IMG/VR virus record: IMGVR_UViG_3300018489_000278
Reading direction: 5' to 3' (one strand)
DNA from: a virus
Taxonomy: Duplodnaviria > Heunggongvirae > Uroviricota > Caudoviricetes
Length of the DNA stretch: 27,451 bases
Shown: piece after piece, positions 12,567-27,451 of the stretch
Layout of the letters: each line of letters starts with the position of its first letter
How positions within the stretch are numbered: position 1 is the first letter of the stretch
Notes under the pieces: model-generated
The model's database searches: none
Told to the model about the DNA's origin: nothing
The model's input: only the letters and a program-made list of their open reading frames with translations
Made by a program: the position numbers and the translations under genes

Positions 12567-13648
12567 TGGACTCTATTTCTTTATTGTCTCAAGAAGGGAC
12601 TACTGTTGTCTATTATAAAGGGCACAAAATTCTTGCTGTTGAGGAAAATCCAGAACAAGGAGTTCCCCAAGGAGGTACTGTTGCACTTGTTAACAGTAGA
12701 GAAGTTAAAAGAGCTAGGGTTTTTACTTTCAGAAAAGATCAGATCGATAGATCTAAAATCTTCAGTAAAGTATCGGAATATACTGGGAAAACAGATTTTG
12801 TTTATGATGTTATTGAGTGGAAGAACTATTATATAGTCACCGTTGTCTCACAGAAGACATTCGACATAGTCCGTAGAACATTTAATCCTTCTCGTGTTGT
12901 ACCTTATGACTTTTTGGTAGTATGGAATATACAAAAACAAATTAAAAAACCTCTTGTTTGTTTAAAGAATGAATTGTTTTATTATATCTCTAATTCTGAT
13001 GTTGCCGTTAGCGTCTTTAAATCAGATATAGAGCCATATATCACAGTGGATACAGTAGTTATTGATAACGATACGCTTAGAGAATTTCCTGAATTACAAA
13101 TAGTTCCTGTCAAAAGAAAATGGGTTATAGATAAAAAATCTAATGTTGATCCTAATAATTTTGTAGTACGTGACGTAGAATTTATTGTTAACAACACATT
13201 ACCTATAAATATTTTGCAAGATGTGTTATTGGTTGCTAACAAAAAACAGCTCAATACTCTACCTGAATTAAGATATGTATTGTCTATATTATTTTGCCTT
13301 ATTGTTTTACTTGGTATAAGGATATTTTCTCCGTTTATTCAGAATATGGTCAAACCTCAATACACTCCAGTCAAGATTTCAATTCCTTCTAGCATAGATT
13401 TAGATCGACCTACTTTTAATGAGTTTATTTATAATAAAGGTTATCCATACACTTTATACGAAGCTTATGACCAAAATAATAATAAAGTGGCTACTTTTGT
13501 CGTGAAAGACGAAGCTATTAAATGGCAACAACTACATAATAATTTTAATTTGTATGCTGTTGTGTATGATAAAGATGGAAACGCGACAAAGACATTATTG
13601 TCAGCTTCCGTAAAGAATCCATCTAGTGAGAAAGGACCATCAGCATGA
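12566..13648 (+). CDS. GspL/PilM-like bitopic pilus assembly protein (putative)
   Basis: About 235-aa cytoplasmic beta-rich domain, one TM (YVLSILFCLIVLLGIRIF), extracytoplasmic C-terminus; coupled to the ATPase gene. Confidence 0.35.
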   Translation: MDSISLLSQEGTTVVYYKGHKILAVEENPEQGVPQGGTVALVNSREVKRARVFTFRKDQIDRSKIFSKVSEYTGKTDFVYDVIEWKNYYIVTVVSQKTFDIVRRTFNPSRVVPYDFLVVWNIQKQIKKPLVCLKNELFYYISNSDVAVSVFKSDIEPYITVDTVVIDNDTLREFPELQIVPVKRKWVIDKKSNVDPNNFVVRDVEFIVNNTLPINILQDVLLVANKKQLNTLPELRYVLSILFCLIVLLGIRIFSPFIQNMVKPQYTPVKISIPSSIDLDRPTFNEFIYNKGYPYTLYEAYDQNNNKVATFVVKDEAIKWQQLHNNFNLYAVVYDKDGNATKTLLSASVKNPSSEKGPSA

Positions 13649-14796
13649 CGGTTGGAAAAGTTGAAGAGATTATTAAAGTAATTGTCAAAACTTTGTCTGA
13701 AACGCACGCGGATTTGTCTGATATCCAATTGTTGCCAGACAGCGTTCCTTATATTCGTGGCTTTATATCTAACAAAATTGATGTTAATGCATTTGTTCCG
13801 CTTTCTTTAAACAATAATATTTCTATTAAAGAAGAGGAATTAAAAGATTTTTTATACAGCCATATTAGCGATGTACAATCGCAACTACTAACAAAAGAAA
13901 GACAAATATCTTTTAGATTAGAAATAAAAAACGAAGACGGATCGACATTGGCAATCTTTAGGGCTACTGCATACTACCAAAGAGATAAATTGTCTCTTGC
14001 ACTTCGTTTTCTAAAAACTAATATTCTTACTCCTAGTGAATTACATGTTCATCCTATTGTTTACACAAATTATATGAAGAATAATGCAGGTCTTATTATT
14101 GTGTCAGGACCTGTTGGTTCTGGCAAGACAACAACAGCAGTTTCTTTGCTCAAAGATAAGCTTATTTCTTCTAAAAATCGTGGCGCATTGCACTTAGTAA
14201 CAATTGAAGCACCTGTAGAATACGAAATCAATGTAGCACCTGACGAAGGAATTGTGGAACAAAGAGAAGTTGGTGTAGATACGCCTGACTTTTTTACAGC
14301 TACAAGGGATATTGTAAGAATCAATCCGAATATCATTTTTGTAGGTGAAGTAAGAGATCCAGAAACAGCAATAAACTGTATTCAAATGGCTACAACAGGA
14401 CATTTAGTTTTAACAACATTCCACTCAGATTCAGTAAAAGACACTATTGCAAGATTCCGTTCTTTTTTAAGAACAAAAGAAGATATATCGATGTTTGCTA
14501 ATGCATTAGTAGCAGTTACTAATCAAAGATTGTTTACATTTAAAACACTGGACGGCTTTAAGGTTTTTCCTATCATGGAGACAGTTAAAGTAGCTGCAAC
14601 ATCTCGAGGCTCAGATGCTATCAAACCTTTAATTATTGAGGATAGAATTTCTGAGATTCCAAATTATATAAATATTGAAAATGAGTCAGTTACAACAGAT
14701 GCTTGTTTAAGCTATATTAAGAAATTGATAGATCAAGAAGAACAGCTTGAGATCGTAAGGAAACCACCGAATCCACCAGTTTCAACAGATTTTTAA
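13645..14796 (+). CDS. pilT: PilT-like type II/IV secretion/pilus ATPase
   Basis: Walker A GPVGSGKTTT, Asp box TIEAPVEY, Walker B PNIIFVGEVRD, His box TGHLVLTTFH, AIKPLIIE resembling the PilT AIRNLIRE motif, and no long PilB-type N-terminus. Confidence 0.75.
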   Translation: MTVGKVEEIIKVIVKTLSETHADLSDIQLLPDSVPYIRGFISNKIDVNAFVPLSLNNNISIKEEELKDFLYSHISDVQSQLLTKERQISFRLEIKNEDGSTLAIFRATAYYQRDKLSLALRFLKTNILTPSELHVHPIVYTNYMKNNAGLIIVSGPVGSGKTTTAVSLLKDKLISSKNRGALHLVTIEAPVEYEINVAPDEGIVEQREVGVDTPDFFTATRDIVRINPNIIFVGEVRDPETAINCIQMATTGHLVLTTFHSDSVKDTIARFRSFLRTKEDISMFANALVAVTNQRLFTFKTLDGFKVFPIMETVKVAATSRGSDAIKPLIIEDRISEIPNYINIENESVTTDACLSYIKKLIDQEEQLEIVRKPPNPPVSTDF

Positions 14797-14825
14797 TGGA
14801 GATATATAGGAAAAATGATAAAATA

Positions 14826-14834
14826 TGATATAAT
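14826..14834 (+). promoter_or_regulatory. Extended -10 element (TGATATAAT) upstream of the DUF1016-like/topB operon
   Basis: Lies in the 100-bp AT-rich gap. No canonical -35. Confidence 0.4.
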
Positions 14835-14897
14835 ATATAAAATGGATCAACAAGAGTATAATTTGTATATATTTAATATATCAGAAGGAGGTAATGT

Positions 14898-15505
14898 ATG
14901 AATACGAGAAAGCTTTTAAAGGAAGATGATTGGCTCAGAGATTTTCTCGATGAAACTCTGGGTGCCATTACTGAGGAGCAGTTCAATGCGACATGGACGA
15001 CGGTAGAGTTTTACCACAAAGTAGGAGAGGTGTTAGCGCCGAATATGGAAGAACTCAAAAACATTTGCGTACAGAAAGCAATGTTGATGTAATGAAATTT
15101 ATTGCAACAAAAATTAAGAAGTCGCCTGCAACAGTTTACAGGGCAGTACAGTTCTACAACAAGTTTCCTGATTTGAATGCTCTGCCTGAAGGTAAAAATA
15201 CTTCGTGGAGAAAAATCTGTAGGTTATATTTACCTAGTTTGCCAAAAACAGATCTTACAGATTGCTTGTTTATTGTTACGGAGGATTTAGCTCATGGTAT
15301 GCGTAAGGGCGACCAAGACTATAATTTCCAGCAGGCAAGCGTTATTTTAGACGATGATGGTACGAAAATTAAGAAGTTTGTCCTTTTCTTTTCACTTGCA
15401 CCTGCGAAAACAGAAGAATTTAAGTTGCCCGATGTAATCGAAGAAAGTGAATTGAATGATATTTTAAATAAGGTTGAAAAAACAAAGACGGTGATTAATT
15501 ATTGA
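14898..15505 (+). CDS. DUF1016/YhcG N-terminal-like helical domain protein (two track ORFs joined at one homopolymer frameshift)
   Basis: SD GAAGGAGGT plus ATG 14898. One extra A at 15057-15061 gives FYHKVGEVL…ELKKHL…FIATKIKKSPATVYRAVQFYNKFPD…SWRKI, the YwxxG…la…s..nl…qFY..fpd…sW pattern of DUF1016_N. Confidence 0.55.
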
Positions 15506-17199
15506 TTAAGTTAATTATTGCCGAGAAACCCTCGGTTGCAAAAACTATAGCTAATGCAATTGGCAATCCTGTTTTTAATAAGGATTACTACGAAGCAGGT
15601 GGATGGACTATTTCTTTTGCATTAGGTCATATTGTTAATCTAGTCTATCCTGAAGAATACAATCCTGCTTTTAAGAAGTGGAGTGTAGATAGTCTTCCTA
15701 TTATTCCGTCTGAGTTTAAGTATACAATTCTGAATAAGCAAAGATTTTATGCTTTATCAAAGCTTATTCAACAAGCAGATGTAATAGTAAATGCTTGTGA
15801 TGCTGGAAGAGAAGGAGAGCTTATATTTAGAGAAATCATTATGTTAGCACAGCCTAAAAAGACAGCTAAAATATACAGGTTGTGGATATCAGCTCTCACA
15901 AAAGAAGAAATACAGAAAGAATTAAATAATTTAAAGGATATTAACAAGTACGATAATCTGTATTTTTCAGCTGAAGCCCGTGCAAAGGCAGATTGGTTAG
16001 TAGGGATTAATGCAACACGGGCTTTTACTATAAAGGCAAACGAATTGCATACGATAGGAAGAGTTCAAACACCAACGCTCTATGCAATTGTAAAAAGAGA
16101 AGAAGAGCGTGCTAAGACACAGGATAAGAAGTACTATGAAATTGTTGGTACTTTTCATTCTGATGAATATAATGGCGTACTTCAAACAGCAGATATTTTG
16201 GAGGATAAATCTATTGCAGAAAGTGTAGTACAGGGGATTCAAGTGGGGACCCAAGGAGTTGTGCAAAATTATCAAGATAGAGTTGTTCAGGTTTCGCCTC
16301 CACTATTATACGATTTAACAACACTTCAAAGAGAGGCAAATAGCGAGTATCATTATACAGCTCAACAAACATTGGATATAGCACAAGCTTTATACGAAAA
16401 GGGTGTTATATCTTATCCAAGAACAGATTCTCGTTATTTGCCCTCCTCTTTGAAGGCAACAGTTGAGAATACAGTCAAACAGATATATCAAGGGCCTATT
16501 GGTCCAATTTATTCTGGCGTTATAAATGATGCAGGAGTTTCAGATCATTATGCACTAATTCCAACAGGTAAGCCTTTAACGACAAGTGATGTAAGAGAGC
16601 AAAAGATATACGACCTTATTGAAAAAAGATTTATTGCAGAATTTTTAGGTTTCGCACACGTGCAAAAACAGAATTTCGAGACGGTACTAAAAAATAAGAA
16701 TAAAAATTTGTTCAAAACAGAGAGGGAAGCTTTGTTGGACCCAGGTTGGCGTGCTATTTACGGAGATAAACCAGTAAACAGATTGCCAGATATCTCTAAA
16801 ACAGAGCATATTTTAGTTGAATTGAATATTGCAGAAAGAATCAAGAAAAAGCCTTCTTCTTTTACTGATGCAAGTTTACTTCACTGGATGGAGAAAGTTG
16901 GTAAAACAGGTTTGGGGACACCAGCAACACGAGCGCAAATCATAGAAAGATTAGTTGAAACAAAGTATGTTGCTCGTGTTAACAATTTTCTTGTACCAAC
17001 GCAAAAAGGTATCAATCTTGTAAAGAAATTAGAAGCTTTGAAGATGAATGAGCTGCTTTCTCCAGATCTTACTGCTTATTTTGAAGAGCAGTTAAAAGAA
17101 ATAGAAGAAGGGAAAAAGAGAGAAGACGATTTTATATCGGATATGGAGAATTACACGAAGAATGTAACGAGTAAATTGTTGGAGGCCTCGCTTGTATAG
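15502..17199 (+). CDS. topB: DNA topoisomerase III (type IA), short form without a C-terminal extension
   Basis: IIAEKPSVA, ACDAGREGELIF, GRVQTPTL, catalytic SYPRTDS, GLGTPATRAQIIERL. Confidence 0.92.
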   Translation: MIKLIIAEKPSVAKTIANAIGNPVFNKDYYEAGGWTISFALGHIVNLVYPEEYNPAFKKWSVDSLPIIPSEFKYTILNKQRFYALSKLIQQADVIVNACDAGREGELIFREIIMLAQPKKTAKIYRLWISALTKEEIQKELNNLKDINKYDNLYFSAEARAKADWLVGINATRAFTIKANELHTIGRVQTPTLYAIVKREEERAKTQDKKYYEIVGTFHSDEYNGVLQTADILEDKSIAESVVQGIQVGTQGVVQNYQDRVVQVSPPLLYDLTTLQREANSEYHYTAQQTLDIAQALYEKGVISYPRTDSRYLPSSLKATVENTVKQIYQGPIGPIYSGVINDAGVSDHYALIPTGKPLTTSDVREQKIYDLIEKRFIAEFLGFAHVQKQNFETVLKNKNKNLFKTEREALLDPGWRAIYGDKPVNRLPDISKTEHILVELNIAERIKKKPSSFTDASLLHWMEKVGKTGLGTPATRAQIIERLVETKYVARVNNFLVPTQKGINLVKKLEALKMNELLSPDLTAYFEEQLKEIEEGKKREDDFISDMENYTKNVTSKLLEASLV

Positions 17200-17626
17200 A
17201 TATTTTAATAGGTACGGCACAAAATACAATAACGCAAAGATAGAATACGATGGAGAAAAATTTGATTCTATGCTCGAGCTTACCTATTATAAGTATCTGT
17301 TGCTTTTGAAAGAAGCAAAAGTTGTTAAAAAGATAGAGAGACAACCAACGTATGAGCTTATACCTGCTTTTGACAAGAACGGTAAGCATTATAGAGCTAT
17401 CAAATATACACCAGATTTTAGAGTGACTTACTACAACAAAGATAAAGAACCAAGAAGGGAAACAGATAAGAAAAAAGATGAGTATGTTGAGATTGTCGAA
17501 GTAAAAGGTTTCCCAGATACGGCATTTAAGATAAGAGTTAGACTGTTTGAGTACTTGTATAAAGACGCAAATCTTGTTATAATAAATAGTAGAAACATAA
17601 AAGAGTACGTAGGAGGTGTATTATGA
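17192..17626 (+). CDS. DUF1064 family protein (PD-(D/E)XK-like)
   Basis: KYNNAKIEYDGEKFDS..E..YY…QP.YELIP…YTPDF…EVKG..D..F; TTG start with SD GGAGG 17181-17185. Confidence 0.85.
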   Translation: MYRYFNRYGTKYNNAKIEYDGEKFDSMLELTYYKYLLLLKEAKVVKKIERQPTYELIPAFDKNGKHYRAIKYTPDFRVTYYNKDKEPRRETDKKKDEYVEIVEVKGFPDTAFKIRVRLFEYLYKDANLVIINSRNIKEYVGGVL

Positions 17627-17886
17627 AATATCATTTAGTTAAAAAAGAGCCGTTGATTAACTCTCTCGGCGAAGAGATTCCGAACTGTTATTTTAGCACT
17701 TACATAAGCGAAGATGCGAAGAATAAACTGGTTCTGTTAAGGTCTCCTTGGTTTAAAGAAGAAGATGTATCAAAAATCTTTTTTGATCGACACAATGAGG
17801 ATGGTAAAGACTATCACACAGCGGTATTTTTTGTGCATGATAAGCAAAATGATTCTTATTATTCTGTAGAGTTTTTGTCAAAATAA
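17623..17886 (+). CDS. Hypothetical protein
   Basis: 87 aa, SD AGGAGGTG, ATGA overlap. Confidence 0.65.
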   Translation: MKYHLVKKEPLINSLGEEIPNCYFSTYISEDAKNKLVLLRSPWFKEEDVSKIFFDRHNEDGKDYHTAVFFVHDKQNDSYYSVEFLSK

Positions 17887-18069: not shown

Positions 18070-18609
18070 ATGAATAGCGTAAAAGCAAGAATAAACAAAA
18101 TTGTACTTGTCCAGTCTTCTTTTCAGTTTATTGTTCCTATTCTTTTACTTGTTTTTGGTTTTACTGAATGGTATAAAATTGGTATCAGTTATATCGTAAA
18201 ATATGTAAGTATTAGCTCTCTATGGATTAATCGTATTTATTTTAGTATTGTATTACTTTTGTTTGTTCTTGTTGCTTTTAAGTTTGTCTCTTTTTTATAC
18301 ACAGTACTTCACAGCTATTTTGAAGTTAATGAAAACAGTATAAAAGTTTCTATCGCATCTTTTACTCGTAGGTATGAGTCAGAAATGCCATTGCATAGTA
18401 TAGAGAATATTCATATGTATCAAAATGCGTGGGAGTCACTTCTTCATTACGGGACAATCCTGATAGAGGGTAAAGGTGGAGGTAAAATGGTATTGCCGAT
18501 GGTATCAGATGTCGAGAATGTATATAAAAAATCTCTGAGAATATTAAAAGCAATGAGAAGGAGCAAGATAGTGCAAAAACAGAGGTTGCAGTATGATTTA
18601 TTATATTAA
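18070..18609 (+). CDS. Membrane protein with a bacterial PH domain (bPH_2/YdbS-like)
   Basis: Two N-terminal TMs, then YFEVNENSIKV…FTRRYESEMPLHSIENI…QNAWESLLHYGTILIEGKG. The C-terminus may differ if A6 18526-18531 lacks a base. Confidence 0.75.
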   Translation: MNSVKARINKIVLVQSSFQFIVPILLLVFGFTEWYKIGISYIVKYVSISSLWINRIYFSIVLLLFVLVAFKFVSFLYTVLHSYFEVNENSIKVSIASFTRRYESEMPLHSIENIHMYQNAWESLLHYGTILIEGKGGGKMVLPMVSDVENVYKKSLRILKAMRRSKIVQKQRLQYDLLY

Positions 18610-18643
18610 GAATAAAAAATGAGTGAGAGGAGAGTGATGTGAG

Positions 18644-20856
18644 ATGTTAGAAAAAATGGTTTTAAAATTTTGAATCCAAGAGAATTTGTTTACGGTCACA
18701 CAGATCAAAAGTTGCTTGATGAGGTTCAATCAGGGCTTACAGGGAGGGTTATACCCACAAGTCATTCGCTAGATTTTGCTAAGTCTGCACAAAAAGATAA
18801 TAGCAAAGCTTTTGATCTTAGTGGTGAAAGAATGAACTTCTTTCTTGGTATTGCAGGATCTCAATCGAAGAGCGATCCTAATACAATCCATACTATTGGA
18901 TATTTAGTTATTCCATATGAGTATTTGCCAGATAATCTGCCACTTAAAAGTGCTAAAAAAGATGTAGTCATATTACTTGATAGTTGCCCTGGTTATTATA
19001 GCGATCAGAATAAAAATGCTGTATATAAAAGACTTGTTGCAGATAAACACATAGATTATATGTTAAAAGATATAAATTACAACCTTCAGAATATTCATGA
19101 TTTAATTGGTGGCATACTTCATTCTTCAGACAATCCTCTATTGGCATCTGATATCAGATACGATATTAGCAAAAATGCAGTTATAGTACTACCAAATAAA
19201 GATAGACTTAAGGAGCTGTTGGTTGAGGACAATCAAAAAATTACGGACTCTAACTTTTCTTTTAAATTTGATATCGCAGTTAGCAAAAATCCTCAGTTTT
19301 TTGAAGAATTATTGGCATCTTTGGATTCTTTTATGAAGAAAGAAGAGGAAACGAATAAAACAGTCATAGCGCAACAAGGTCCAAGAGAACCGTTAGACGA
19401 TATTCTTGATAGAAGCGCTCGTCATAATACGCCAGACGATAAAGATATGTGGGCTTTTAAGCAGCAAGAGTTTGAAGATCTTAAGAAACAGCTTGCTAAT
19501 ATAAACGTAGTGCCAACTAAAAACTTCTTATCAGCGTATTACGCAATGAATGCTTTTGTTTTTGGAGCTAAGCTACAATTGAATAGTACTGACAAATCAA
19601 ATAATCCAGTAAATGAGCGTTTGCTTGTTATAAGTGGTCCTCCAGGTGTTGGTAAAACATTTGCAGTCCAAGCATTCTTGAAACTGTATGAGGATAAAGT
19701 AGCCTGCGCTGAGATATCAGGTAACGCTAATGATATGGACGCTGTTAAGAGAGACCTTATAGGAACAGTGAGACTTGAAGGCAACGAGCATGGTGGTACT
19801 TCTACAAAATTTGAAGCAGGCCAATTTGCAAAAGTTATAGGTAAAGCTATATCAGAGAATAAAGATCATTGTGTCATATTCTATAATGAGTTTAACAGAA
19901 ATATCGGTCTTAATGAGTTCGATAAATTTGTAAGAAGTATAGGTGATAGTAACAGGATTGATATTGATCCAGAGGCGAACCTTGACGAAGTTGCGAATGT
20001 GCTTATTACTGAATATAACATCGTTCCTATTCGCGATGGTAATAGACTCGTTATAGATCTCAACAATGTAGATGGACATGGCAAGAAAGTAAATTTGTCT
20101 TTTATTTTGACTGGTAACTTCCCTGATAAAGATTTGACTGCAGCAGATTTGCAGGTTTCAGACCAGATACCTTTGGCTTTGTCTAGAAGGTCTTATCTTG
20201 TGAAAATGGATTACTTTGATCCAAGAGATAAAGATGATGCAAAGCAAATTAAGTCTATGATTTATCACAATGGCCACTTCTTGGATACTGTTTCTGTGTA
20301 TTCACAAGCAGTAGCAAAAGCTAGTGGTTTTAACGAACAGCAGACAAGCGATTTTGTATCTACGGTTAGACAAGCTCTTTTAAGTGAGAATTTAGATATT
20401 ATTAGACAAAAATATGGCGAGAAAGCGTATCTCGTAACGGATGCTTTTGTTGGAGAAAATGGACAAAGCTCTTTGTATAGAAACATTAACGATTTTTATA
20501 CTAAGTTTTACACTTTATACAAGAATGGTAAAACAACGCTTGTTCCAGCTATAAGCGAAATAGCTATGGAGATGCAACAGGTATTGGATATCGTAGCACA
20601 AGTAAATTCATCTGAACTTGTTTCATCGCAAATTAAGAAATCTTTTGTTGACTTTTTGTATAAAGAAGAAACAGTGTCAAAAGCATTCCCTCCAGGATCT
20701 GAGGAAGAGGAAGGTATGATAGAAATGATTCAGTTTATGTCAGACGATCTATTTGCACCTGCAGATTTGTATAACTATGTTTTGTTTAAAGCACAATCAG
20801 CAACACTTCCTAAAAACAACAATGTCAAACAGGTACAAGACGATAAAGAAAGGTGA
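18644..20856 (+). CDS. MoxR/McrB-like AAA+ NTPase, copy 1 (track ORF 18670..20856), ends …DDKER
   Basis: Walker A GPPGVGKT, Walker B-like IFYNEFNR, sensor-1 TGNFPD, Arg finger ALSRR. ATG 18644 joins with one extra T at 18660-18663, giving MLEKMVFKI, which aligns with LNKLVFNV of copy 2. Confidence 0.8.
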
Positions 20857-20862
20857 TAGACG

Positions 20863-23289
20863 ATGACTGATAACGAAAAACAAAAAATCGTAGATCAGTT
20901 GAGAGAGTCTATTAGTAAAGCACAAGAGCATTATGAACTTTATGTTCCGCATGCTACTGCTTCATTTGATGGTGTCTATCGCTTAAAAGCCAATGTTTAC
21001 AACAATCTCAATACACAGCCTGTTACGATTGTCCAAGTACCGCCTAATTTGACAAACGAGGAAGAATTACGCTCTCTGTTTTTTAGACAAGGCGTAGATG
21101 CAAATATTTATATTGGCGGACAGTTCAAGTTGATAGATATGCAGGCAAAAAAAGCCTATCCGTACGAGTCTGCTGTATTACAAGAAAAATATACTATTGT
21201 AGTACATGAACTTTATCATATAGCTATAACATTTAATCCATTCCTTTTCAGTATAGAAAATGAAAAAGATAAATATGTAGATCCGCAAATAGGCAACATT
21301 ATTGATGACTTTATTATTGATGTAATTGGAACGCCGCTTCTTCATGAAAATAGCATGTTGGAGTCTGCAACAAGAGGTTTTGAGATTGACAAATACCATT
21401 ACTACAATATGATGAAGCCAGGTAAAGGATTTGCAGCAGATTTTTGCAGATATTTATATGGTTATGTATTAGAAAGAGATATAAGTAAGTCTTATAGTTT
21501 TCCTAAAATGGAAGGTTTGCCAGACGAACAGCAAAAACAGTTGGAAAAAGCATTTAATAAGTTTAGGCAAAGAATATTGAGTATTAGAGTTAGACTTGAT
21601 AATAAAGATCCTGATCTTTACTATTTTTGGAATTATCCTAACTTGTTTACTAATGGCAGGGATAATGTGCTTTTAAATGAAATATATGCTACGATCCGTT
21701 CTTTAACAAGAGATTTGAAGTTAATAGATAAAAAATTACAAGACGAGCAAAAAAAGTCCTTAAAGGATTTAATGCAACAAAATAACAATGCACAACAGCA
21801 AGGTCAAGGTCAAAAAGGTGAAGGTAACGACGGAGGTCAGAATAATCCTAACAGTCAGAAACAGGGACAAGGACAAGACCAGCAAGATGCTAACGCACAA
21901 CAGCGACAACAAGGACAAGAAGGTGGCGAGCAACAGCAACAAGGACAAGGGCAAAGTCGCGGTCAACAAGAGGCAAAAGGCAGTGGAGATAAAAACCAAC
22001 AAAGCCAAGCATCTTCTCAACAGTCGCAAAACGGAAAAGATATTGATAGAAATTCTACAGGTAATGCTACTGTAAAAAATTCTAACTCTGAGCAAAAAAG
22101 TGGCAATGGCAAAGGGCAAAGAACAAATAATATAGACGGAGAAAAAACAGAGCAAGAAGGACAAAGTGAAAAGGTAGGCGAGAAGCAAAATAAAGAAGGT
22201 AATCAAGATAGCAAAAACGGAGAAGAGCAATTATCAAATGATAAACAGCAAGCGTCAGGCGATAATGAAAATGGTAGAGAATTAAGTCAAGAAGAGATAC
22301 AAGAAATTGTTAATGAGTTGCTTAATCAAATGATCACCTCTAATACAGTAATTTTTGTTGATAGAGACAGCGGAAAAGTTATATCAGAAGACGAGGTTGG
22401 TAATACATTGCAGACATTACAAGAAGTTTTAGATGCAATTTCAGAGAAAAAAGGTGCAGGTGCTAAAGTTGTTGATGGTAATCCTGTTACGCTAGTGTCA
22501 AAGTATTATAATCCAGAGCTAAGAAGACAGTCTCGCAAGATTGTGAATAAATATCTTAATACAAAACTGCACGCCTTTGCAGATAATGCTAATTTGTATG
22601 GGAATAATATTGTATTAGGCAAGCAAGGGAACGATAGTGGAAGAATAAACATCGATAGAGTGGTTAAACAGTATCCTAAGATTGTTTCACGTAGCAATTC
22701 TCCTGCACTTGTTTACGATAAATATAAGATGTCACCTATGCCTAAAATAAATATTTATGCCGTATGTGATGTATCTGGTTCTATGGACACATTAAACAAA
22801 ACATTAAAACCTTTTCTTTCTACTTTTTATAGAGAAGGTCTTAATTCGTTGTTTCATATATCAATAGTTGATTTTTCAGACAGCGTAGTGTTAGAACCAG
22901 AAAGTGCCGTTAGATCATATGATACATATTTTAGCAATATTAGAAGAGGTAATATAAATGAAAGTGGTACAGATCCTTTACATCCGACAAATCTTCCAGT
23001 GTGGAAAAAAATTATTAGAGAAGGTCATCCTGATTTGGTGATAGTGTATTCAGATTTTGATATTAGTGGCGCGAGATCGAAACAAGAGGCACAAGCACTT
23101 ATGAAAGAGACTTTTAGAAAATTGGGAGCTAAAGAAAACGGTATAGTTTTTGTTGATGTCAGCAGTGAGAAATTTCGTGAAGTCAGAAGCGTACAAGAGT
23201 TTTTAGAGAAGGTAGCCGACATCACTATGACTAATATTATTGACTACTTTAATAATAAGGTTAAAATGATAAGTAGCGTTGGTAGGTAA
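20863..23289 (+). CDS. Putative metallopeptidase (HExxH) plus VWA domain protein, copy 1 (DUF2201-like architecture)
   Basis: HELYH at 21205-21219, NIIDDFIID, ~170-aa Q/G/N/E-rich linker, MIDAS DVSGS at 22768-22782, GTDP and YSD. Confidence 0.8.
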   Translation: MTDNEKQKIVDQLRESISKAQEHYELYVPHATASFDGVYRLKANVYNNLNTQPVTIVQVPPNLTNEEELRSLFFRQGVDANIYIGGQFKLIDMQAKKAYPYESAVLQEKYTIVVHELYHIAITFNPFLFSIENEKDKYVDPQIGNIIDDFIIDVIGTPLLHENSMLESATRGFEIDKYHYYNMMKPGKGFAADFCRYLYGYVLERDISKSYSFPKMEGLPDEQQKQLEKAFNKFRQRILSIRVRLDNKDPDLYYFWNYPNLFTNGRDNVLLNEIYATIRSLTRDLKLIDKKLQDEQKKSLKDLMQQNNNAQQQGQGQKGEGNDGGQNNPNSQKQGQGQDQQDANAQQRQQGQEGGEQQQQGQGQSRGQQEAKGSGDKNQQSQASSQQSQNGKDIDRNSTGNATVKNSNSEQKSGNGKGQRTNNIDGEKTEQEGQSEKVGEKQNKEGNQDSKNGEEQLSNDKQQASGDNENGRELSQEEIQEIVNELLNQMITSNTVIFVDRDSGKVISEDEVGNTLQTLQEVLDAISEKKGAGAKVVDGNPVTLVSKYYNPELRRQSRKIVNKYLNTKLHAFADNANLYGNNIVLGKQGNDSGRINIDRVVKQYPKIVSRSNSPALVYDKYKMSPMPKINIYAVCDVSGSMDTLNKTLKPFLSTFYREGLNSLFHISIVDFSDSVVLEPESAVRSYDTYFSNIRRGNINESGTDPLHPTNLPVWKKIIREGHPDLVIVYSDFDISGARSKQEAQALMKETFRKLGAKENGIVFVDVSSEKFREVRSVQEFLEKVADITMTNIIDYFNNKVKMISSVGR
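21772..22280 (+). repeat. Low-complexity Q/G/N/E-rich coding region (CAA/CAG-rich)
   Basis: QQNNNAQQQGQGQKGEG…QQQQGQGQSRGQQ… read directly. Confidence 0.85.
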
Positions 23290-23327
23290 AAATGTATAGA
23301 CCTAATTATTTTGTTGAAGGAGGTAAT

Positions 23328-23650
23328 ATGGCAATGAATAACAAGAAACCGGCGATGTTGCAGGCTTTTTATAAATTAGTTTATGCAACAGAACCTGCAG
23401 TATTGAGCGGGAAGGATGTTGTTTATATTTTTAAAAACGATGATAGTATCTTAAAAAGTTTTTTAACACATTTCAGAATGTCGTTTCTAATTACGAGAAT
23501 GCAAAATTTTGTTTATCTGCAGATTTGCAGAATGGCTCTTTTGTTTTGTATGTGAAGGATCTTATAAACGGTCCTTATATTCAGTTTGACATTGTTACAG
23601 AAGAAGAACTTTTTTTGATACAGAGTTTAAAAGAGCGTCATTATTTTTAA
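23328..23650 (+). CDS. Hypothetical ~107-aa spacer gene between the two AAA/VWA modules, one homopolymer frameshift
   Basis: SD GAAGGAGGT plus ATG 23328. One extra T at 23459-23464 continues as FFNTFQNVVSNYENAKF…LKERHYF*. As sequenced, it stops at 23555. Confidence 0.55.
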
Positions 23651-23666
23651 GAAAGAAAAGTAGGAG

Positions 23667-25802
23667 GTGCGTGTGAAAGTAATGACTTTAAACAAATTAG
23701 TATTTAATGTTGACGATGACAGGTTAGATCGTTTATTAGATCCACAAACTGCTACAGGTAGTGGAAACGTTAACGAACCAGTTGTAAAGGATATTCTTAG
23801 CGACAATGGGACAAATGTTAATATTGTTTATTCTACTATCTACGCACGAGCCTCCAGTGGTGGAACTGTTAATCAGCAGAAACCAATTGAATTTAATATA
23901 GCAGGTGTAATCTGTGTTCCGTATGAATTCTTCGCCGATAATTCTCTGATTAATGCAAGCAAGAAAGACTTAATATTTATTTTTGATACATGCGAAGGAT
24001 ACAAAAATCATACATATCCATACGGAAGAGCAGAAGTGCATGTTAATTATATAATGAGACATTTGACAGAGATGGTAGATACTTTTGCTAATACTTACCA
24101 CAGAAGTAATAATTTTGATGATATAGCAAAAAATAGTCTACTAATATTATTGAGTCCAGACGAGATAAAGAATCTTGGTATTAATAGAAAAACAGTAAAT
24201 TCTATCTCAAAGAATATTGAGATATCTCGTATGCTTAAAAGATCCAATGTTGATATAGAAGCTAATAGTATATTAAGTATTGTCAAAGAGGCTGAACCTC
24301 TTGCAGGGAAACTGATTACAGAGATGGGTATCCAACAAAGCAAAGAGAATGTATCCACCAATGGCGAAATAGATCTTTCTCTTTTGAATGGTGAACAGAT
24401 AACAAACTTGATTCTTACTTCTATTAAAGATAAAAATGTTATACATTCAACAATTAGAAGCACTATTGAAGAGAAAAATAGGATTTTTAATGAAAAACTT
24501 ATGTCGATGCGGATTGTCCCTACGAGAAACTTTCTTAAGGTATATAAAGAAATAGATCACTTGATTAAAACATCAATTAGAATCAAAAAAGTAAATAACG
24601 AGTCTTCTTTAATTATATATGGACCTCCTGGTGTTGGCAAAACATTTGCTGTTGATGCTTACAGACATTTAAACAGTAGCGATTACGCTTTTGCTTTTAT
24701 ATCTGGCGATCCAGACAATATTACTGCGTATAGAAATGACCTAATTGGTAGAAACATTGTTACTGCCAAAAATGGTGGCACTGAGAATGAGTATGTTCCA
24801 GGACAGCTTGTTATAGCTTTAAGCGATGCTATTGTTAATAAGAAGAAAGCTTTGAATGTTATAATAAACGAATTTAACAGATCTGCTTCGCTTGGCAAAC
24901 TGGACCAAATTATTCGTGATGTAGGCGATACAGGTATTATAAGAATCGAAGCGCAAGCAGACATGGAAGAACTTGTCAATGTAATGAGAGAGAAGTACGG
25001 TATAAACGCACAGTTTAAAGGTGGTTTTATTGAAATAGATACAAATAATGTTGACGGCAAAGGTACACGTGTTCCTGTGACATTTACATTGATTGGCAAT
25101 TTGCCGGATAAAGATCTCTCGGCGTCTTCTTTGGGCGTTCATGAAGAAATACCAGCGGCATTGGTGAGAAGATCAATTACGAGAAGACTGGATTATACAA
25201 ATCCGTATACAAAACAAGGATTGGATGAATTAAAAATGGTTGTAATGTACGATAGGCATTTTAATATAATGTTAGAAGATTATGTTTATGGTATTGCTTG
25301 TATCAATAAAGTAAATGCTACAGAACTTTTCAATGATGTAATGAGTGCGTTAGCAAGTAATGATTTTTCTCATATAAAGCAAAAGTATAACGAGGCAATA
25401 TATAATGCAATTGATGAATTTGTCGGTAGCTCAGAAAATTCTATTATTAACCAATCGCTCACTTTTTACAATAATTTATACGATATGTATCAAAATGGAC
25501 AAATAAAAATTGTTCCTTCTATTCCAGAGATACTGAACCATTTTAGTGCGATGTTAGATATTATTAAAGATTCTGCTACATTACAAGATGCACAAGACGA
25601 CATAAACGATGCTATTAAGCAGTTTGTTGATAAATATGTATCTTCAAAAATGATAGATATAGACGAAGTTGATGAAAGTTTTAAAGACTTTATTAAAATA
25701 TGGACTAACCATATACTTAAGCCGGCTCTTTTGTATGACTATTTCAACATAATTCCTGAAGATGTATTGCAGAGAGGTCAAATAGATGGAGAAGAGAGGT
25801 AG
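23667..25802 (+). CDS. MoxR/McrB-like AAA+ NTPase, copy 2, ends …DGEER
   Basis: GPPGVGKT, VIINEFNR, IGNLPD, ALVRR. N-terminal domain is homologous to copy 1 (VPYEF…ASKKDLIFIFDTCEGY). Confidence 0.8.
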   Translation: MRVKVMTLNKLVFNVDDDRLDRLLDPQTATGSGNVNEPVVKDILSDNGTNVNIVYSTIYARASSGGTVNQQKPIEFNIAGVICVPYEFFADNSLINASKKDLIFIFDTCEGYKNHTYPYGRAEVHVNYIMRHLTEMVDTFANTYHRSNNFDDIAKNSLLILLSPDEIKNLGINRKTVNSISKNIEISRMLKRSNVDIEANSILSIVKEAEPLAGKLITEMGIQQSKENVSTNGEIDLSLLNGEQITNLILTSIKDKNVIHSTIRSTIEEKNRIFNEKLMSMRIVPTRNFLKVYKEIDHLIKTSIRIKKVNNESSLIIYGPPGVGKTFAVDAYRHLNSSDYAFAFISGDPDNITAYRNDLIGRNIVTAKNGGTENEYVPGQLVIALSDAIVNKKKALNVIINEFNRSASLGKLDQIIRDVGDTGIIRIEAQADMEELVNVMREKYGINAQFKGGFIEIDTNNVDGKGTRVPVTFTLIGNLPDKDLSASSLGVHEEIPAALVRRSITRRLDYTNPYTKQGLDELKMVVMYDRHFNIMLEDYVYGIACINKVNATELFNDVMSALASNDFSHIKQKYNEAIYNAIDEFVGSSENSIINQSLTFYNNLYDMYQNGQIKIVPSIPEILNHFSAMLDIIKDSATLQDAQDDINDAIKQFVDKYVSSKMIDIDEVDESFKDFIKIWTNHILKPALLYDYFNIIPEDVLQRGQIDGEER

Positions 25803-27451
25803 TAATTATTATACTCTTGTAGTTCCTTATGCGACAACTTCTTTAGAAGGTGTTTTTGATTTAAACGCTGTTGTCTATACAGATGAGCAGAATAAAAATG
25901 TACCAGCGCATACATCTATTATGCTACCTGATACGGATACTGCAGATGACATTAGTAATATTTTTTTCTCTAAAGGTATCCCTGTTGATATTATAATTGG
26001 TAGTCAAACACAGCTTGTATCAAACGGCAAGCCTTGTTTTTTCGAAGAAGCACCTATTAATGAAAAATACTCGATTGTTTTTCATGAACTAAATCATATT
26101 GTTATTACATATAATCCATACATACATGAAGTTAGAAAAAGTATAGGCAACTTTTTAGACAAACTTACTAATAATATTCTGCATGATTTTATTGTAGATA
26201 CGATAGGCACTGCTATCCAAAATGAAAACTCAATGATGAAAATGGCATTAAAAAATACGGCTATCGATAAGTACCATTATTATAACTACCTAAAGAATTG
26301 GAAAGGAACAACAGGCGATCTGGTAAGATTTTTATATGGTTATACGGTAGAAGGCATAGAATATCCTTTTCCTGCTATTGATGGATTGTCCCAAGAAGAC
26401 TATAACAATCTGAAAGATGCATGGAAGAATTTACGGAATGGCATAAAAGCAATACGAGATAAGATAGACAAAAGGCAAGATGGATATTTTGATTTTTGGC
26501 ATTCTAATAGGATTTTTTCTGTTGAAGATCCTACAAAAATTATACGCGACATTAGAGATGTTCTTACATTGTTTAAAGATAGTTTAAAAGAAATAGATAA
26601 TAATGTCCAAAATGTTTCTCAAAATTGTATACGAAGCATACTAGAGAACATGGCAAAAAAAGAGCAGTCTGAGCAGAGTCAGAACAAAGATTTCCAAAGC
26701 TATACGGAAGTTATTTTTGTTGACGCAAAAGGTCAAGCGTTGTCAGATAGAAGTGGTGAAGACGGATTAAAAAATTATTTGTATAGCATAAAACAAGTAA
26801 CGTCTTCACATAAAGTTGATGTTGGCGGGCTTATAAAATCGCAATGTCCTCCTGAAATTCGTAGTTATGCTAAACAAGTTGCACGAAAACTTATAAGCAA
26901 TACTCGTTTGAGAATTATTTCAGAGCAAGCTAATGTATATGGGCACAATGTTATAATCGGTAAAGAAGCAGATTTTTCAGACGGTGAAGTTAATATGGAA
27001 AGGATTGTTGATAATTATGCAACTATACTTAAAGGCAACGCAGAAAGTGTACCTTTTTATGATTCTTATCATATAAAACCACTTCCAAAAATATCTATTC
27101 TTATTGTTACGGATGTATCTGGTTCGATGGAGATGCTGAATATGACATTAAAACCATTTTTGTCCGTTTTTTATTTAGAAGGTCTTAATACATTGTTTGA
27201 TATTAATATTGTTGATTTTTCTGAATCAGTAGTGAAAGAACCTAAATCAAAAATGGTACTGCCTTGTATTATTGCTATATTGCAGGTGAAGGAGGAACAG
27301 ATCCTTTTGCGTTAGATAATTTACCTGTGTGGAAAATATCATTAGAGAGACAAGACCGGAAATAGTTCTTTTTACAGTGATTTTAAGTTTGATACATCAT
27401 TGTTTTCTGATTAGTAGGGACCCAGATCCTGAACATCTTACATTGCATATG
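25786..27451 (+). CDS. HExxH peptidase plus VWA protein, copy 2; 3' end frameshifted and possibly running off the window
   Basis: HELNH at 26083-26097, DKYHYYN shared with copy 1, MIDAS DVSGS at 27112-27126. Adding one base at each of 27249-27253, 27333-27336 and 27369-27373 restores GGTDP…NLPVWKNIIRE…YSDF, matching copy 1. The track stop is 27315. Confidence 0.75.

Follow-up and report, generated by a model that had tools for sequence, protein, structure and literature searches.

Two paralogous operon modules of a predicted MoxR-class AAA+ ATPase and a VWA partner on an uncultured, low-GC mobile element

The DNA analyzed here, referred to as the window, is the whole 27,451-nt stretch of the IMG/VR virus record IMGVR_UViG_3300018489_000278, in which all genes lie on the plus strand and the G+C content is ~33%. 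Its final part (18644-27451) carries five genes, all on the plus strand, in the order AAA1, partner1, small gene, AAA2, partner2 (Table 1), the order that an earlier note made from this sequence had described. Each AAA gene encodes an AAA+ ATPase that belongs to the MoxR class by predicted fold, and each partner joins an N-terminal domain with an HExxH motif to a C-terminal VWA domain with a MIDAS, or metal ion-dependent adhesion site. The spacing is operon-like, with a gap of 6 nt between AAA1 and partner1 and an overlap of 17 nt between AAA2 and partner2.

The two modules are related to each other. AAA1 and AAA2 share 29% identity over 674 columns (E 2e-85), and partner1 and partner2 share 33% in their N-terminal parts (E 3e-53) and 42% in their C-terminal parts (E 2e-39). 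Similarity so far above chance identifies both the AAA copies and the partner copies, at the level of sequence, as true paralogues, and the description of them as strongly diverged copies holds.

Gene content and reading frames of the locus

Table 1. Coordinates and properties of the five genes in the window
Feature	Coordinates	Strand	Description
AAA1	18644..20856	+	MoxR-class AAA+ ATPase by predicted fold, 737 aa, C-terminal -KER tail
AAA1 domains			N-terminal domain ~1-270, without family; AAA core ~280-525; then helical lid and C-terminal region
partner1	20863..23289	+	808 aa; HExxH domain 1-315, linker ~317-473, C-terminal VWA
small gene	~23313..23650	+	~112-116 aa, conserved, matches no known family; frameshift near 23455-23466
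AAA2	23667..25802	+	Paralogous MoxR-class AAA+ ATPase by predicted fold, 711 aa, C-terminal -EER tail; slow-evolving copy
partner2	25786..27451 (window end)	+	HExxH domain (HELNH) and VWA (DVSGS); incomplete at window end

The reading frames were compared with a twin assembly of the same element, the 56-kb Joint Genome Institute (JGI) contig L008. Positions 18600-27451 of the window match L008:9957-18804 over 8,852 nt with 0 mismatches and 12 single-base insertions or deletions (indels), 11 of them in runs of A or T. The window is one A short in the run at 18652-18657; with the extra A present in L008, AAA1 becomes a protein of 737 aa (P0005) whose true start is the ATG at 18644, and not the open reading frame (ORF) 18670-20856 of the program-made list. 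Partner2 has four one-base frame breaks (27249, 27333, 27369, and 27414), and L008 mends the frame at all of them; the reverse is also true, the window being intact at sites where L008 is broken. Because the indels fall nearly always in A/T runs and are accompanied by no mismatches, the breaks at the start of AAA1 and in partner2 are judged from the two sequences to be homopolymer assembly errors and not gene decay. The possibility that partner2 is a pseudogene was rejected on the same comparison, since the frame is restored at all four breaks. Judged from L008, the 3' end of partner2 lies ~183 nt beyond the window, and the sister element described below has an intact orthologue of 619 aa (P0018).

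The frameshift in the small gene is present in both assemblies. Its orthologue in the sister element is intact (P0020, 116 aa), and a tblastn search of the window with that protein splits into two frames at this gene. Other ORFs of the window that are split or short are suspect for the same indel artifact, for example 17623-17886, which reads as 87 aa in the window and as 148 aa in L008.

The AAA+ proteins and their VWA partners

The Walker A motif GPPGVGKT is invariant across the AAA family, as are a GN and the RR of an ALxRR motif immediately ahead of strand 5. The RR occupies the place of the MoxR Arg finger, which is located just before strand 5 (Kaur et al. 2020, PMC7159879). The earlier note had Walker A, Arg finger, HExxH, and MIDAS retained in both copies, and these motifs proved to be conserved family-wide. 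A reading of Walker B as Asp-Glu is to be corrected; the motif is in fact Asn-Glu, appearing as NEFNR in 10/10 close homologues, and distant homologues have Gln, Asn, or His in place of the Asp. The Walker B Glu is kept throughout, in close and distant homologues alike.

The AlphaFold model of the AAA protein has a mean predicted local distance difference test (pLDDT) score of 62.7, with the core (residues 280-660) mostly at 70-90 and a poor N-terminal domain. The model shows beta-hairpins at the positions of the helix-2 and pre-sensor-1 inserts. In fold comparison NorQ and CbbQ stand ~2 Z units above generic AAA+ proteins, HslU and Clp scoring 11-12, and McrB, at 11.5, is also below NorQ. The modeled core is accordingly nearest to MoxR members and has both of the beta-hairpin inserts, and by predicted fold the ATPases are MoxR-class. 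AAA_5 falls under its Pfam cut-off of 22 (AAA1 19.2 bits, AAA2 16.2 bits), AAA_3 is without a match, and the sole Pfam model that AAA1 passes is the generic PF00004 AAA (23.8 bits, cut-off 21.2). A PDB sequence-profile search with the whole AAA protein gave matches at the P-loop level alone, and PADLOC models gave weak P-loop matches alone, to IetA, MkoA, and mad8. AAA2 has a weak match to PHROG 249, "porphyrin biosynthesis" (E 0.005).

The N-terminal domain of the AAA proteins (~270-290 aa), which had previously resisted placement in a family, continues to do so: a PDB profile search returned nothing past P-loop or coiled-coil noise, and a protein atlas search no usable match. D-[ST]-C-x-G-Y is its one conserved motif.

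The partner model has a mean pLDDT of 69, with both domains at 85-90. Its C-terminal domain is predicted to adopt a VWA fold nearest to the AAA-associated MIDAS domains of MDN1 (11.1), Rea1 (10.8), and NorD (10.2), and the MIDAS residues D636, S638, S640, T703, and D731 (partner1 numbering) are invariant in 14/14 family members. A Pfam scan of the window partners gave no match, VWA models included. A VWA_CoxE signal is found in 8 of the 14 members, mostly below threshold (best E 8e-8), and a single distant member, P0039, passes that model (32.4 bits, cut-off 26.4). The assignment to MoxR-VWA pairs made in the earlier note thus stands on predicted fold and the complete MIDAS, but not on the Pfam cut-offs of AAA_5, AAA_3, and VWA.

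The HExxH motif is present in 13/14 members of the partner family, and D149, D153, and H179 are conserved downstream of it, making them candidate third metal ligands on sequence grounds. In a low-confidence Atlas model the N-terminal domain weakly resembles M48/M56-like clusters (template modeling score 0.5-0.59); PDB searches gave no match covering this domain. The label "metallopeptidase" finds backing in the motif, in a remote match to DUF2201_N, and in these weak M48/M56-like leads, but in nothing beyond them.

Membership of DUF2201 fails at the curated Pfam cut-offs: neither DUF2201 nor DUF2201_N matches any window protein, and the relative P0030 has a faint DUF2201_N match (E 0.044; 13.8 bits, cut-off 23.2). 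We compared the family by hhalign with 11 DUF2201 proteins taken from GTDB genomes (L015-L025), obtaining 95% for the VWA part (E 4e-8) and 81% for the HExxH region (E 1.3e-5, 89 columns). DUF2201 proteins (PF13203 DUF2201_N plus PF09967) share with the partners an HExxH helix, an N..D..D/N helix, and then a VWA domain with DxSGS, GGT, and TDG. They differ in being 400-460 aa long, as against 620-810 aa with a disordered linker in the window family, and in being chromosomal and present in 8/121 sampled genomes, whereas the window family has 21 representatives in 1.84 billion. The relation between partners and DUF2201 therefore appears, from these alignments, to be remote and short of membership. 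HExxH is absent in 3/11 of the sampled DUF2201 proteins. An ORF of ~360-410 aa adjoins most of the sampled DUF2201 genes (L015-L025) and is probably a MoxR partner.

The partner1 linker (residues ~317-473, window 21800-22330) is a disordered stretch of ~160 aa rich in Gln, Gly, Asn, and Ser. It is far longer than the linker of partner2 or of most relatives, and the linker is the chief length difference among the aligned members. A complex prediction for AAA residues 275-737 with partner VWA residues 500-808 scored 0.09 against a mark of 0.32, which speaks neither for nor against binding.

Distribution, genomic setting, and divergence of the pairs

Relatives are few and all those found come from metagenomes: ~12 AAA clusters in a word-indexed search of 5.8 billion proteins, and 21 partner-family proteins when 1.84 billion representatives were searched exhaustively with an HMMER profile. 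Neither the PLSDB plasmids nor the INPHARED phages gave a match, by megablast of the region or by tblastn with AAA1 and P0018 (50,697 phage records in the INPHARED tblastn), and a scan of IMG/VR with the AAA alignment gave two matches at the P-loop level alone. A pattern-seeded scan of 185,579 GTDB species genomes yielded at least four matches, of which the two examined were FtsH-like double-AAA M41 proteases and were set aside as false leads. The earlier note had held that ordinary chromosomal homologues, or a copy with a ratio of nonsynonymous to synonymous substitution (dN/dS) near 1, would count against its proposal. There was no chromosomal relative among the matches listed in the GTDB scan, and no copy has such a ratio (see below). 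The family is a new and rare variant of MoxR-VWA pairs, one that family models nearly always miss.

The five genes stand in the same order in a sister element (L001/L002), and more distant elements (L004, L005-L007, L026, L027, and L028) have a single pair. The AAA gene lies directly 5' of the partner gene in both pairs of the window and in L002, L004, L026, L027, and L028, the AAA genes of the last three being assigned to the family by hhalign at 99% or more. L005 is the exception to direct adjacency, which is found in 5/6 other loci; there AAA and partner are separated by a small gene and by one gene on the reverse strand. The small gene of L005, which follows the AAA gene, is a homologue of the one in the window (P0023, pairwise E 9e-7; L005 clade), and a hidden Markov model of the small protein detected no significant homologue in L004, L026, L027, or L028. 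A neighborhood survey thus found the AAA-VWA pairing kept in all related loci examined, in line with the earlier note, and the related elements carry the pair in single copy as part of their backbone.

Upstream of the pairs the window encodes an actin-like partition protein, HU, a prepilin peptidase, PilM/N/O-like proteins, a T2SSE ATPase, a topoisomerase, DUF1064, and bPH_2. The topoisomerase and DUF1064 recur beside the pair in the window clade and in L027. T2SSF and a topoisomerase adjoin it in L005/L006, where a DNA polymerase III alpha gene is nearby, and the pilus genes T2SSE, T2SSF, and PilD recur near it. L027, a 44.8-kb metagenome contig, has a TraG/VirD4-type coupling protein, a T2SSE ATPase, and an N_methyl pilin 3' of the pair (13485-17594). 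The carrier, earlier taken for a mobile element, is a mobile extrachromosomal element, and the pair is among the backbone genes conserved in a family of conjugation-like extrachromosomal elements. The gene set of L027 is a hint that a type IV pilus-like machine underlies a DNA-transfer apparatus there.

The AAA tree joins each window copy to its sister-element counterpart (support 100/99 and 100/100), and the four window and sister copies cluster to the exclusion of the single-copy elements (100/100); the partner tree agrees. As the copies group across elements, the duplication must, on these trees, have arisen in this lineage before the window and sister elements split. The two pairs have since changed at unequal rates. 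Branches are 1.2-1.5 long for AAA1 and 0.23-0.27 for AAA2, pair 1 evolving ~5x faster than pair 2, and AAA1 is 35% identical to its orthologue in the sister element, AAA2 68% (P0017). AAA1 is the most diverged gene of the syntenic block, its neighbors being 50-98% identical. Nei-Gojobori dN/dS values are 0.35 for AAA1, 0.25 for partner1, 0.11 for AAA2, and 0.18 for partner2, and are if anything overestimates, because dS is saturated. Both pairs are, by this sequence measure, under purifying selection, and the proposal of an old duplication with both copies constrained is upheld by tree and ratios alike.

Identity to the sister element is mosaic over window 14993-17626 (L001:6388-8958), where the topoisomerase is 96%, DUF1064 98%, and a 170-aa gene 93% identical, against 50-65% for the flanking pilus genes and 35-43% for AAA1 and partner1. 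Near-identity within such diverged flanks suggests that the topoisomerase block has recently recombined between elements.

Possible role of the pairs and rival explanations

We think it rather probable that the locus holds two paralogous operon modules, each consisting of a deeply divergent MoxR-class ATPase and a VWA-MIDAS cofactor, in most cases accompanied by a small third protein encoded close by, and that their client lies in the machinery of the element. The steps of a possible mechanism can be drawn by analogy with NorQ-NorD, CbbQ-CbbO, and midasin. The ATPase would form a hexameric ring on which the VWA domain of the partner docks, and the MIDAS metal of the partner would hold an acidic residue of the client. 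Hydrolysis of ATP would then twist or pull the long flexible linker of the partner and so remodel the client, which the HExxH domain might finally cut or bind through its metal. In NorQD a VWA finger inserts in the pore of the ring, the C-terminus of the cofactor touches the post-sensor-1 loop, and ATP hydrolysis twists the linker to remodel the client (PMC13036017); a general vWA-MoxR model has also been put forward (Kaur et al. 2020, PMC7159879). In the window family, the linker, which is long and disordered, and the conserved C-terminal tails would fit the NorQD picture.

The structurally described NorQ-NorD and CbbQ-CbbO systems (PDB 9qh4-9qhg, 6l1q) are like the window pairs in having adjacent AAA and VWA genes, a complete MIDAS, and a long linker from the N-terminal domain of the partner to the VWA domain. 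In contrast, NorQ and CbbQ have no detectable sequence similarity to the window AAA proteins past the P-loop. NorQ is ~260-270 aa long, whereas the AAA proteins here reach 710-740 aa through an additional ~280 aa domain at the N-terminus and an extended helical region at the C-terminus. The window pair differs further in its Walker B Asn-Glu, in the HExxH domain at the N-terminus of the partner, in its mobile carrier, and in having no nitric oxide reductase (NOR) or Rubisco client.

The client is most likely part of the transfer or maintenance machinery of the element itself, given the conserved position of the pair beside topoisomerase, DUF1064, type IV pilus-like, and, in one clade, coupling-protein genes. 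Duplication in this lineage gave rise to a conserved "housekeeping" pair 2 and a fast pair 1, which has probably taken on a new client. The two specificity variants of a remodeling or proteolysis machine suggested in the earlier note, and all the targets it named (host defense proteins, pilus or mating-apparatus components, and ER-tagged substrates), are inferences. Several points weigh against our reading. The neighborhood argument is one of association, and metagenome contigs are the sole source of the elements. ATPase competence is assumed, because Walker B has Asn, Gln, or His where MoxR proteins have Asp, and peptidase activity of the HExxH domain is suggested only by motif conservation and weak fold leads. 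No window protein reaches the Pfam cut-offs of AAA_5, VWA, or DUF2201, and the AAA model is of medium quality, poorest in the N-terminal domain.

The uneven rates of the two pairs could instead reflect an arms race, if the pairs of AAA protein, VWA domain, and zincin formed a host-takeover or counter-defense machine that remodels or cleaves host proteins of defense or of the surface. The ~5x faster evolution of pair 1 and the position of AAA1 as the most diverged gene of its block would suit such a role, as would the many phages that carry look-alikes of the partner over its whole length. We nevertheless consider counter-defense unlikely: the pair is single-copy and holds a fixed backbone place by topoisomerase and pilus genes in diverged clades, which is more core-like than cargo-like, dN/dS of pair 1 is well under 1, and neither PADLOC models nor known anti-defense families are matched. 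The fast evolution of pair 1 does keep a host-directed role open for that copy. A different link to defense would be a vWA-MoxR conflict system, in which an invader is sensed and the pair regulates release of the HExxH peptidase as effector. The three-gene core of AAA protein, vWA protein, and small protein formally resembles the ternary systems, the vWA protein has a fused peptidase domain that looks like an effector, as in those of Kaur et al. 2020 (PMC7159879), and defense genes are common on mobile elements. Yet there is no VMAP, iSTAND, FtsH, or beta-propeller third component and no PADLOC match, and several clades are without the small third gene. The HExxH domain is moreover N-terminal here, while effectors are C-terminal in the ternary systems, and the backbone position is conserved, so that of the explanations considered we find this one the least probable.

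It is also possible, though very unlikely in our view, that the pair is a chaperone for metal insertion like CobS/CobT, NorQ/NorD, or a chelatase, loading a metal cofactor into an enzyme of the host or the element. Such a role has been proposed in the literature for viral CobST (PMC8651126). The best structural matches of the window proteins are NorQ and NorD, the weak PHROG 249 match of AAA2 points the same way, and the full-length partner model resembles phage "VWFA/CobT-like" proteins in BFVD (Foldseek E ~1e-9 over 750-890 columns), a whole-length resemblance with which protein atlas searches agree. One look-alike cluster of the partner N-terminal domain has Pfam CobT in 20% of its members. 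The conserved HExxH, however, is not known from CobT or NorD, and the link to CobS/CobT is one of fold likeness to the phage "CobT-like" proteins alone: searches at the level of sequence matched none of the CobS, CobT, and NorQ families, with Pfam CobT and CobS_N without a match. Neither the window nor the related loci contain CobN, NOR, Rubisco, or another known client gene, and the neighbors are genes of DNA transfer, not of cofactors. The phage CobS/CobT-like pairs themselves (cyanophages, Gordonia phages, and haloarchaeal tailed viruses; PMC8651126) are likewise borne by mobile elements, and the VWFA/CobT-like proteins that the partner model resembles are 580-860 aa long. Annotations often call phage CobT a peptidase. 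Unlike those genomes, the window and related loci show no phage structural genes.

Two further systems invite comparison. The p618 (MoxR)-p892 (VWA) pair of Acidianus two-tailed virus is reportedly a virus-encoded pair with a proposed role in remodeling a large assembly, apart from ordinary metabolism (Scheele et al. 2011, cited in PMC7159879). It belongs to an archaeal virus, is not known to have an HExxH domain, is not duplicated, and is likened to the window pairs by description only. The Walker A motif of McrB, GPPGVGKT, is the same as that of the window AAA proteins. McrB-McrC is also alike in having an ALxRR-type motif ahead of strand 5 and a finger-in-pore contact of the partner (PMC13036017), but its partner is a PD-(D/E)xK nuclease where the window has a VWA protein, and the window AAA proteins lack the NTAD GTP-specificity motif. 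McrBC-like restriction was rejected, as the partner is a VWA protein and not a nuclease and McrB scores under NorQ.

MoxR-VWA pairs are widespread and few have a known client or mechanism; the present family is a very divergent one on uncultured, low-GC elements. Should the pair act in assembling the transfer apparatus or in processing its cargo, conjugation-like DNA transfer would gain a new accessory function. Two natural features, the Asn that replaces the Walker B Asp and the paralogues of unequal rate, offer handles on how AAA-VWA specificity is set.

A C-terminal Glu-Arg (ER) tail is found on 8-9 of ~30 window genes, both AAA proteins included (window 36-25802), and the partners also carry it in most ER-bearing clades, while L027 and L028 have AAA-partner pairs without it. 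The earlier note had counted ER-tagged substrates among the possible targets of the machine. As the tail is on the AAA proteins and partners themselves and is absent in two clades that keep the pair, it is not simply a substrate mark; from its sequence distribution it characterizes a sub-lineage and does not go with the pair as such. There is, we believe, a small chance that it is an address label read by the MIDAS or the AAA ring, which would bind the acidic/Arg-carboxylate end of the tail, the complex unfolding, trimming, or handing over ER-tailed element proteins, for example for pilus-like export. Were this so, a mobile element would have a tag-directed processing system of its own, in which two paralogues act as readers. 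Tails in the window include those ending at 1061, 1945, 4209, 4791, 6702, 7665, 20856, and 25802. Three neighboring genes of L004 (4355-10206) end in EYER, EMER, and EMER, L005 also has tails, and in L026 the AAA protein ends in EQR and the partner in ELER.

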